Shown one piece after another: positions 1,840 to 4,201 of a stretch of DNA of 4,201 nt. Source of the stretch: a virus (Duplodnaviria; Heunggongvirae; Uroviricota; Caudoviricetes); IMG/VR virus record IMGVR_UViG_2675903661_000013, positions 1-4,201 of that record. One strand, given 5' to 3'. Position 1 is the first letter of the stretch. Each line of letters starts with the position of its first letter. Position numbers: made by a program.

Positions 1840-4201
1840 TGAGCTGTTGTTCTTTTCAGCGCAGGTAACTGGCAGCTCTGCATACTTGTTATATTGCGCA
1901 TAAAAAACCGGGGAGCAGGGCGTTACTCCCCGGTAAACATACAGACCAGACAATGATACCACACTGCCAGTTATTATTATCATGACATAAGTCAGCGCAG
2001 GGAATATTAGTGCATGCACATGTCTGGTTTCTTTGATCTCACAACGCTTTTTTTGTGAAAAGAAAAAAGATGAGGCACTGAAATCACAGTTTTATTTAAA
2101 TGAGTGGACGTTGATGATTATTAAGAGTTTTAAGCTATACACCCCTGAAAAATCTGACGTGCCGGGTGCGATGTACCTGAAATCAGTAGACGGCAGGGAC
2201 TGGTACGAAAGCCAGTCATTATTCGCGGCAGACACGCTGAAGCTGGTTTATGACAGTAACGGTATAATCACCAGCATAAGTAAGGATGTCTCTATGCTGT
2301 GGCCGGTAAACCAGAGTGTGGCAGAGGTTGCAGATACGGAAGAAAACCGCAAAGCTGACATCTCGGGGCGCTGGGGTTTTGACGGGGAGAAAATCACGGA
2401 CCTGCTGACCGCGGAGAAAGCGCGCGGGATGAAGGGCGATGAAATTAACGCGTGGCGTAATGCGATGGAGGCGGCGAACTACACGTTTGAGCACAATGGC
2501 CGGAAATGGGACTACGGGAAGTCAACGCAGACGCGTCTTGAGCCATCGGTGGCGGCGGCGAAAGCGGGGAAACTGCCGGAGGCGTTTTTCTGGACGGATG
2601 CGGAAAACAATGATGTGGAGGTGACAGCAGAAGAGCTTATAGCGTTGAGTGAAGCGGCAGGGCAGGCGATGTTCACCAAAGGGATGGAAATCCACGTTCG
2701 CCAGCGCACCATGAAGAAAGAGCTGGAAAAGCTGACCAGTGCGGATGAGATACTGGCATACAGGGTTGGCTGGGCACAGGAGTAATTGGTGGAAAAGAGG
2801 GATTGTCCCTTTCTGTTTTTACTGAAAGAGTCGTAATAATTACGCAGGGAAATATCATGGCTGAACTAAACAGTTAAATTTTGATGATATTGTGATGTTG
2901 CTCAGAAATTACAGTGTAAGCAGATGTGAAATATCCAGCGGCATGAGATCAGTTTTTTATTTAGTATTGCTCTGCCTTGTGCTCCAGTATTTGGAGTAAA
3001 GGTGTAAAAAATACACTAAGATATTTCCTAAAAATTAAAATTAAATTTGTGGGGTTTTTTAGGAATATCCTCATGGGTGCCGAAATACATCAGATTTTCT
3101 TTATTCATCCGATGTATTTCGGTTTGTTTGTATACAAATAAATTCATGAGGAATCATACATGGATAAGTCTTTATCACGAAGTGTTATTTCCGTTGTTAT
3201 TGGCGGTATTTTATTTGGTGTAAGCGCTGGCGTTCTGGCTCAGGATGCAGCGGAGAATAAGCTTATCGCCTCAGGGAGTATCCCAGAAAATACAGATCTT
3301 TCTGCTTCAGCTCGCGCGGATGGAGAGATTGCGCTAGCTGTTGGTACAGGGGCCAGCGCGGATAAAAAAATTGCAACATCAGTGGGATCATGGTCTGCAG
3401 CACGAGGACAGCAAAGTGTGGCTTTAGGTGGGGGAACATATGCTTATGCAGATGCATCTACAGCCCTGGGAAGCATTGCATTTGTTGATAACACGGCTAC
3501 ATATGGCACGGCAGCAGGTAACCGAGCCAAAGTTGATAAAGATGCAACAGAAGGTACTGCGTTAGGGGCAAAGGCAACAGTAACAAATAAAAACAGTGTT
3601 GCATTAGGAGCTAATTCACGCACAACCCGTGACAATGAGGTTTATATCGGTTATGAAGCAGAGCCGGGTAAGGCTTATAAAACCCGGGTGCTTGGTGGTC
3701 TGAGTGACGGTACTCGTCCCTCAGATGCTGCAACCGTTCGTCAGGTTGACCGTGTAAAAGACAGTGTTGAGCAACTGGCTCAGGATACGAATACCCGCCT
3801 TGTGGTTGAAGCGAAAAAGTCTCGTGAATATACAGACTCCAGAACGACAGTTGGTGTTAACTCCGACGGAACCCTGACCCGTGCAGAAGGAGCCAGCAAA
3901 ACCCTGGCTGTTAATGATGGGCTTGTAGCTTTGTCCGGCAGAACAGACCGTATTGATGCTACTGTTGGTAGTGTTGACCGCCGGGTTACTAAAAATACAC
4001 AGGCGATTCAGTCCACTTCCCGTCAGTTGCAGGAGCACAACACACGTCTGAACAGTCATCAGCGTCAGATTAATGAAAACCACGAAGAGATGAAACGTGC
4101 GGCAGCCCAGAGCGCAGCGCTGGCAGGTCTTTTCCAGCCGTACAGTGTGGGTAAATTCAACGCCACTGCTGCCCTGGGGGGGTACAGTGATAAACAGGCT
4201 G

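Follow-up and report, generated by a model that had tools for sequence, protein, structure and literature searches.

Leader RNAs in which the Shine-Dalgarno (SD) sequence is sequestered by pairing and then opened in trans or by translation are exemplified by E. coli rpoS (DsrA/RprA/ArcZ) and by the IS10 transposase with its fold-back inhibition, and in lambda N a leader that occludes the SD is known to be processed by RNase III. Here we describe a candidate element of this kind in a 4,201-nt stretch of Caudoviricetes DNA (IMG/VR record IMGVR_UViG_2675903661_000013, positions 1 to 4,201; hereafter the window), which represents the tail-fibre end of a lambdoid prophage. A perfect 12-bp inverted repeat precedes the gene for a YadA-like trimeric autotransporter adhesin, and we propose, with a probability of roughly 55%, that the adhesin mRNA has a structured 5′ leader in which this repeat forms the central hairpin (P2) and which would repress translation by sequestering the ribosome-binding site (RBS). 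As in the rpoS and IS10 leaders, an upstream pyrimidine-rich strand is predicted to pair at long range with the downstream SD, and compensatory changes keep that pairing. In contrast to those systems, to which it has no sequence relationship, the present leader has a closing helix (P1) that encloses two hairpins (P2 and P3), and most eib-type lineages carry an upstream open reading frame (uORF) that starts in the anti-SD strand. With the lambda N leader it shares a lambdoid-phage origin and a long helix that occludes a downstream RBS, although the gene that follows here is a cargo (moron-like) adhesin gene, situated at the tail-fibre end, and not an early gene, and the sequences are unrelated.

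The two arms of the repeat, CCGAAATACATC (3080-3091) and GATGTATTTCGG (3111-3122), are exact reverse complements separated by a 19-nt spacer, situated 38-80 nt 5′ of the adhesin ATG at 3160 and followed by TTTGTTTG at 3123-3130. A first-pass annotation of the window had reported this repeat and considered it improbable by chance; we verified its coordinates in the sequence and obtained estimates that bear out the second point as well. It is the sole perfect 12-bp inverted repeat with a spacer of 3-40 nt in the window, at least one such repeat appeared in 0.67% of 4,201-nt sequences simulated with a first-order Markov model, and the figure was 0.2% for simulations matched to the 33%-GC intergenic region (2786-3159). 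These results confirm that the repeat is real and non-random. In a repeat search the arms lengthen to 16 nt if one mismatch (A3092 vs C3110) is allowed, and at the RNA level a G3079·U3123 pair adds a 17th position, so that the stem is composed of 13 pairs including G3079·U3123, the A3092·C3110 mismatch, and 3 further pairs. Most of these pairs are A-U; of the G-C pairs, four lie at the base of the stem and three further up. As a 43-nt RNA the repeat folds at -16.6 kcal/mol (z = -7.0 relative to dinucleotide shuffles), and in the window the corresponding hairpin of the minus strand is a little more stable (-22 kcal/mol).

When the flanks are included, the hairpin becomes the middle arm of a larger predicted fold that persists in a 321-nt context. 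In the window, P1 joins an upstream UCCUCAUG strand to CAUGAGGA, the adhesin SD, and P2 and P3 occupy all nucleotides between the two P1 strands, giving a three-helix junction with zero unpaired junction bases. P1 (11 bp) stacks directly on P2 (13+3 bp), producing a helix of ~25-27 bp. The SD of the window is predicted to be paired with a probability of 0.98, at an opening cost of ~9 kcal/mol, and mononucleotide shuffles of the upstream sequence reach this degree of pairing in 3% of trials. Across the six leaders tested outside the eibA lineage, the window included, the SD is paired with probabilities of 0.97-1.00; in the eibA lineage the AUG is paired instead (P = 1.00). Shuffled upstream sequence attains these SD or AUG values in 0-7% of trials.

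Homologous upstream regions precede the classical eib genes of the ECOR-9 prophages (P-EibA, C, D, and E) and occur in several more recent phage and genome records. We collected 18 distinct leaders by scanning viral and metagenome contigs for patterns, by BLAST searches of complete E. coli genomes, and by a locus search based on the protein. They fall into six lineages: the window type, 'deer48', eibC/D/E together with eibG-like leaders, the L142 type, the eibA type, and 'type 6'. Exact 12-bp arms occur in the window lineage only. Single-sequence folds of seven leaders from five lineages nevertheless have the same P1/P2/P3 layout despite differing sequences, and the sixth lineage behaves likewise. 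In each lineage the fold contains a helix that closes on the RBS and, at the position of the repeat, a hairpin of 14-17 pairs with a stability of -10.9 to -21.7 kcal/mol; P3, the UUUGUAUACAAA hairpin, is kept in five of the six and is absent only from deer48. Since the exact repeat is lineage-specific, what has been conserved is the hairpin and not the sequence of its arms.

The closing helix illustrates how far the sequences have diverged. The window pairs TCCTCATG with CATGAGGA, the eibD type ATATCCTG with CAGGATAT, the L142 type ATCCTG with CAGGAT, and type 6 ATACCCT.ATGAAA with TTTCATAGGGTAT. In eibA leaders (L004 / L007) the helix is GCTCATG/CATGAGC and pairs the start codon region, not the SD; its GCTCATG strand is the homologue of the anti-SD strand found elsewhere. 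The 3′ half of the same eibA leaders resembles the type-6 leader, a likeness which suggests that the leaders may be recombinant mosaics.

Several side observations may be recorded here. In E. coli strain 48 (L005; NZ_CP166879), the RefSeq coding sequence for a YadA-like protein starts at 3159, and the leader is followed at 2818 by an in-frame ATG with a signal-peptide-like sequence, MGNRLLRRAVSVAISGTLLGLGVGVSAAED; the annotation probably places the start 341 nt too far towards the 3′ end. Upstream of a distant YadA-like gene in IMGVR_UViG_3300023038_000020 (L333, ~1063-1200), TATCCT and TCAGAC...GTCTGA motifs are kept along with a hairpin. The upstream region of L333 has no clear SD-sequestering helix, and this sequence may be a seventh, more diverged leader lineage. 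Among viral contigs, the pattern AATATCCT...ATCAGAYTTT was too unspecific and returned mostly chance matches; scans of genome contigs gave zero matches to the 18-nt box, and the gapped pattern found only chance matches in unrelated phyla.

Covariation provides evidence that the pairing has been maintained. In a structural alignment of the 18 leaders, built by hand and passed to the programs with gaps as N, standard pairs fill 85.8% of cells, compared to 34-47% in controls whose 3′ partners had been slid by 1-3 columns. Both-sided changes affect 13 of 38 pairs (3-7 when slid), the covariation score is 0.248 (≤0.079 when slid), and none of 500 shuffles equalled the alignment in score, in its count of doubly changed cells, or in the percentage of cells paired. 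Within P2, 11 of 20 pairs are compensatory and some columns contain three or four pair types; one pair of P3 is changed on both sides. P1 cells are 88.5% paired, and covariation extends to the SD itself, where, in lineage 6, a U-A to C-G swap has turned ATATCCT/AGGATAT into ATACCCT/AGGGTAT. A matched CAT/ATG insertion of 3 nt on both P1 strands distinguishes window-type from eibD-type leaders. Given the hand alignment, RNAalifold recovered the P1 core, both parts of P2, and P3 unaided. Taken together, these comparisons argue that pairing in the hairpin is under selection across the lineages.

The substitutions also carry information on the form in which the structure acts. Non-Watson-Crick cells comprise 77 G·U and 11 A·C combinations, and pairing amounts to 85.8% when calculated for sense RNA, 74.9% for antisense RNA, and 73.1% for DNA. 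The excess of G·U over A·C favours a structure formed as sense-strand RNA, and it bears directly on the first of three roles considered in the first-pass annotation, that of a DNA operator for a dimeric regulator. By this account the repeat would be bound by a dimeric or tetrameric protein, for example as the target of IbrAB, or by a phage repressor-like protein. The symmetry is perfect and statistically unusual, it lies 5′ of a regulated gene, and eib genes are activated in trans by ibrAB (Sandt et al. 2002, as cited in PMC7649339). However, the arm sequences differ between lineages while pairing stays, so that the substitutions preserve RNA pairs and not DNA symmetry; compatibility with G·U on one strand would be meaningless for a DNA site; and the sequence-conserved parts are the loop and apical stem, not the 12-bp arms. 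Moreover, the centres of the two half-sites lie 31 bp apart, an atypical spacing for a dimer, and no further half-site occurs in the window at up to two mismatches. We regard an operator as highly improbable. A function on the antisense strand was likewise rejected: the minus-strand hairpin has no following U-tract, and the family-wide G·U counts favour the plus strand.

It is also conceivable that the repeat gains no function from being perfect, and that templated (quasi-palindrome) mutation or chance perfected an ancestral hairpin that had been imperfect. The restriction of perfect arms to the window lineage, whose upstream region is present in 9 of 5426 complete E. coli genomes, is consistent with this idea, and so is the finding that imperfect hairpins elsewhere are similarly or more stable (eibD, -21.0 kcal/mol; L142, -21.7 kcal/mol). 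Such an origin would account for the degree of perfection only, whereas the hairpin itself appears to be selected across lineages. Variation inside the window lineage points the same way. FHI_NMBU_11 (L318) differs from the window at 3 positions in 186 nt compared, one 5′ of SL1 (a second inverted repeat described below), one in the SL1 loop, and C3110T; the last is the only difference in P2, and it improves pairing further by converting the A·C mismatch to an A-U pair. The same C/T toggle has occurred independently in an eibA-type variant (u10; leader L138), with repair of the same mismatch. As an explanation of the repeat, functionless perfection seems improbable to us.

A further role considered for the repeat was that of an attenuator or terminator insulating the adhesin gene from phage late transcription. 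Here, P2 and the adjacent U-rich UUUGUUUG would stop transcription at ~3125-3132 unless a ribosome on the uORF or another factor blocked the hairpin, in the manner of pyrBI. The arrangement recalls the leader-peptide attenuators of pyrBI and ampC and intrinsic terminators in general, in that a hairpin is followed by a U-rich run and crossed by a short uORF. The hairpin is stable (-16.6 to -19 kcal/mol), its G+C-rich base lies beside a tail with 6 U in 8 nt, the uORF spans the entire hairpin in four of the six lineages, and the L142-type leader, with a U7 tail, has a classical terminator score of +11.8. By the same measure, the d'Aubenton-Carafa d, for which terminators have d > 0, the window hairpin scores -11.5, as opposed to +26.5 for a minus-strand terminator at 1907-1934. 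An 11-nt loop (3-8 nt in terminators) and a 43-nt A+U-rich stem are atypical, and a consensus terminator scan was silent at the site. The tail is not conserved: it is not U-rich in deer48, eibC/D/E/G, or type 6, which score -50 to -75, and L142, the sole lineage with a good score, is without the uORF. In addition, the U-run is the 5′ strand of the conserved P3 helix, and termination would leave the covariation of P1 at the SD unexplained. Another hairpin, at 2796-2812 and directly 3′ of the preceding gene, is the more likely end of phage late transcription. Termination or attenuation at P2 is, in our assessment, rather unlikely.

The third role, a hairpin in the 5′ untranslated region (5′-UTR) that controls translation or stability, is the best supported of the three: the hairpin is kept in all six lineages and the fold pairs the SD with probabilities of 0.97-1.0, and from this we infer the control itself. 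Within this role, the fold could be mainly an element of RNA processing or stability, in which the stacked P1-P2 helix serves as an RNase III substrate or as protection, sets the half-life of the message, and exposes the RBS. The stack, uninterrupted by junction bases, has a length suited to RNase III, the covariation indicates that pairing is selected, and the element sits in a lambdoid prophage. Helix lengths and internal loops vary widely, however, as the range of P2 stabilities given above and the large internal loops in the eibD and eibA types show, and the idea overlaps with translational repression and would not exclude it. We consider it unlikely that processing or stability is the main role.

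Repression of translation through a buried RBS, the reading we prefer, would operate as follows. P1 locks the adhesin SD in a helix and would thereby keep basal translation of the adhesin low; because there are no unpaired bases at the junction, P2 and P3 should stabilise P1 by stacking. Repression could be relieved by translation of the uORF, the stop codon of which lies 18 nt before the adhesin AUG in the window and for which AGGAA at 3061-3065 is a possible SD. A ribosome on the putative uORF could melt the fold and hand over, by coupling, to the adhesin start. An ORF from the homologous ATG is present in four of the six lineages, with 22 codons in the window type, 17 in deer48, and 25 in both eibA and type 6; in the last two its UAG stop overlaps the SD and lies 10 nt ahead of the adhesin AUG. 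It is also possible that the fold is opened by a trans-acting RNA or protein, or that RNase III cleaves the long stacked helix.

A number of observations weigh against this proposal or limit it. Two lineages, eibC/D/E/G and L142, lack the uORF, and the peptides it would encode elsewhere are unconserved beyond what shared nucleotides dictate; for these reasons, the uORF is not a universal release mechanism. In the eibA lineage the SD is not buried (P = 0.40). In five lineages, with type 6 as the diverged exception, the apical stem of P2 and its loop, AUCAGAUUUUCUUUAU, have kept their sequence, for which a purely structural role is an insufficient explanation. This conservation suggests that the loop has a specific partner. 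Inspection by eye for a pseudoknot joining the loop to the beginning of the adhesin coding region found no conserved complement. The alignment itself calls for caution. With an automatic MAFFT alignment of 12 leaders, RNAalifold recovered P3 only, since indels misplace the 3′ arm of P2, and it was for this reason that the alignment was built by hand; being guided by the fold, it biases the counting of pairs in favour of the structure. Cells also outnumber independent events, since many of the 18 sequences are closely related, and among metagenomic variants u25 breaks one P1 pair and u17 one P2 pair.

Further points of the same kind concern transcription and temperature. No convincing sigma-70 promoter was found in 2851-3175, either by a consensus scan or by a position weight matrix scan across seven aligned upstream regions, and it is from the sense-strand covariation that we infer transcription of the leader together with the adhesin. 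Eib production is tightly regulated, being high at 37°C under static conditions and in stationary phase and near the detection limit at 23°C (PMC4352079, PMC5450701), and EibG is strongly reduced at 23°C compared to 37°C (PMC4352079). Predicted SD pairing and the ~9 kcal/mol opening cost barely change in silico between 23 and 42°C, so the fold alone does not explain the published effect of temperature. RNA thermometers (fourU, ROSE, Yersinia lcrF) similarly pair the SD in a virulence-related leader, but unlike them the present leader is nearly flat over this range and has no fourU or ROSE motif, and the predicted temperature dependence does not support a thermometer. A search of the whole window against Rfam (both strands, E ≤ 1) gave zero matches.

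Candidate -10 sequences were considered and set aside: TATACA, within P3, and GATAAT/TAATTT, downstream, would place transcription starts inside or after the SD, and the deer48 type does not have them. The accessible literature on eib (PMC4352079, PMC5450701, PMC13534694) gives neither a mapped transcription start site nor a regulatory mechanism. Further upstream, a 24-nt box at 2906-2929 is invariant in seven of seven aligned upstream regions, in which mean column identity is otherwise 76%; the eibA-type upstream region has no match to the part of the window that contains the box. No promoter consensus fits the box, which may be a promoter, a regulator site, or the real control region. A short inverted repeat, AACTGAACAGTT / TTAACTGAATAGTTAA, is conserved ~45 nt 5′ of it (L001, 676-687; L005, 2523-2534) and is degenerate in the window (AACTAAACAGTT, 2864-2875). 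This repeat could be a protein-binding site.

Just 5′ of P1, a second perfect inverted repeat, SL1, covers the possible SD of the uORF. Its position is that of the 'stem_loop' features in the GenBank records of P-EibA/C/D/E (AF151091, AF151674-6), with which it aligns. Sandt and Hill had thus already noticed hairpins in the same upstream region of the same gene family; their features, however, correspond to SL1 (3025-3065), 5′ of the P2 element, and a hairpin at the P2 position is annotated in none of these records. At the SL1 position of other lineages there are hairpins of quite different sequence, for example GAAATTCCGAA/TTCGGAATTTC in eibA.

Leaders that sequester the RBS are a known kind of element; this one is absent from Rfam and unannotated in the eib records. 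With somewhat less than even confidence, we suggest that the repeat marks an undescribed family of cis-regulatory leader RNAs of prophage-borne Eib/Cla-type adhesins, defined by a compact three-helix junction that buries the RBS and is usually crossed by a uORF whose end lies at the RBS or close to it, and possibly the site at which static growth, stationary phase, temperature, or IbrAB exert control. Such a family would be a new motif among the bacterial cis-regulatory RNAs catalogued so far. In LEE-negative Shiga-toxin-producing E. coli, the Eib, EibG, and Cla adhesins drive chain-like adherence, resistance to serum, and the binding of immunoglobulin, and a leader supported by covariation offers a concrete, easily mutated target for studying their unexplained regulation. 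There is a practical consequence as well: expression constructs that carry ~170 bp of upstream region include the predicted repressive fold, and 168 bp 5′ of eibG, spanning the leader, has been used as an expression cassette (PMC13534694).

Table 1. Positions of the leader elements and neighbouring features in the window.
Feature	Position	Strand	Description or basis
Side-tail-fibre protein gene, collagen-like repeats	112-1842		Pfam phage_tail_N, Phage_fiber_2, Collagen
DUF4376 protein gene, tail-fibre-assembly-like	2114-2785		Pfam
Terminator-like hairpin (2796-2812) and T-run	2796-2822	+	Directly 3′ of DUF4376 gene; terminator scan, classical score weak
Invariant 24-nt box, AAATTACAGTGTAAGCAGATGTGA	2906-2929	+	~230 nt 5′ of adhesin AUG; common to window, deer48, and eibC/D/E/G-type upstream regions
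SL1, second perfect inverted repeat, TTCCTAAAAA (3025-3034) / TTTTTAGGAA (3056-3065)	3025-3065	+	10-bp arms, 21-nt spacer
P1 5′ strand, anti-SD, UCCUCAUGGGU	3068-3078	+	Contains uORF AUG (3073-3075); pairs with 3142-3152 in minimum-free-energy and centroid folds
uORF, 22 codons, MGAEIHQIFFIHPMYFGLFVYK and stop	3073-3141	+	Starts in P1 5′ strand, crosses P2 and P3
P2 hairpin (the reported repeat)	3079-3123	+	Arms 3079-3095 / 3107-3123; loop 3096-3106 (UUUCUUUAUUC)
P3 hairpin, UUGUUUG / UAUA / CAAAUAA	3124-3141	+	On TTTGTATACAAA palindrome; folding; abuts P2 and P1
P1 3′ strand, AUUCAUGAGGA	3142-3152	+	Includes adhesin SD GAGGA (3148-3152)
Adhesin gene, 5′ part, YadA-like trimeric autotransporter (WP_044809140.1, full length 383 aa)	3160-4201, past window end	+	Pfam YadA_head; JNEC-KY202 annotation

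The passenger domain encoded by the ORF from ATG 3160 matches the EibD structure 2xqh (E = 1.7e-94). DNA of the window is found at 100% identity in a few Shiga-toxin-producing E. coli, such as JNEC-KY202 (O128ab:H2), in which the locus reads gpJ, hok, tail fibre, DUF4376, the 383-aa YadA-like protein, a 157-aa hypothetical protein, dinI, and chromosomal prfC.

Elsewhere in the window, the 271-nt spacer between the tail-fibre and DUF4376 genes (1843-2113) has no close match in the phage collection. It contains the strong minus-strand terminator at 1907-1934, which consists of an 11-bp G+C-rich stem and T5, and a promoter-like site on the plus strand at 1953-1980; a hydrophobic minus-strand ORF of 66 codons (2019-1819) has no NCBIfam match. 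Directly 5′ of the tail-fibre start codon at 112, a hairpin, CCGCAGGCCGGGAAACCGGTACTGCGG, is followed by T8 (63-100, -21.6 kcal/mol) and looks like a plus-strand terminator within the late operon. The tail-fibre gene itself contains two 108-nt repeats (684-791 and 1236-1343) that are 80% identical and correspond to Phage_fiber_2 domains, together with blocks of collagen-like Gly-X-Y repeats at 517-683 and 1382-1622, and collagen-like repeats in tail fibres are known from prophages of pathogenic E. coli (PMC3368898).

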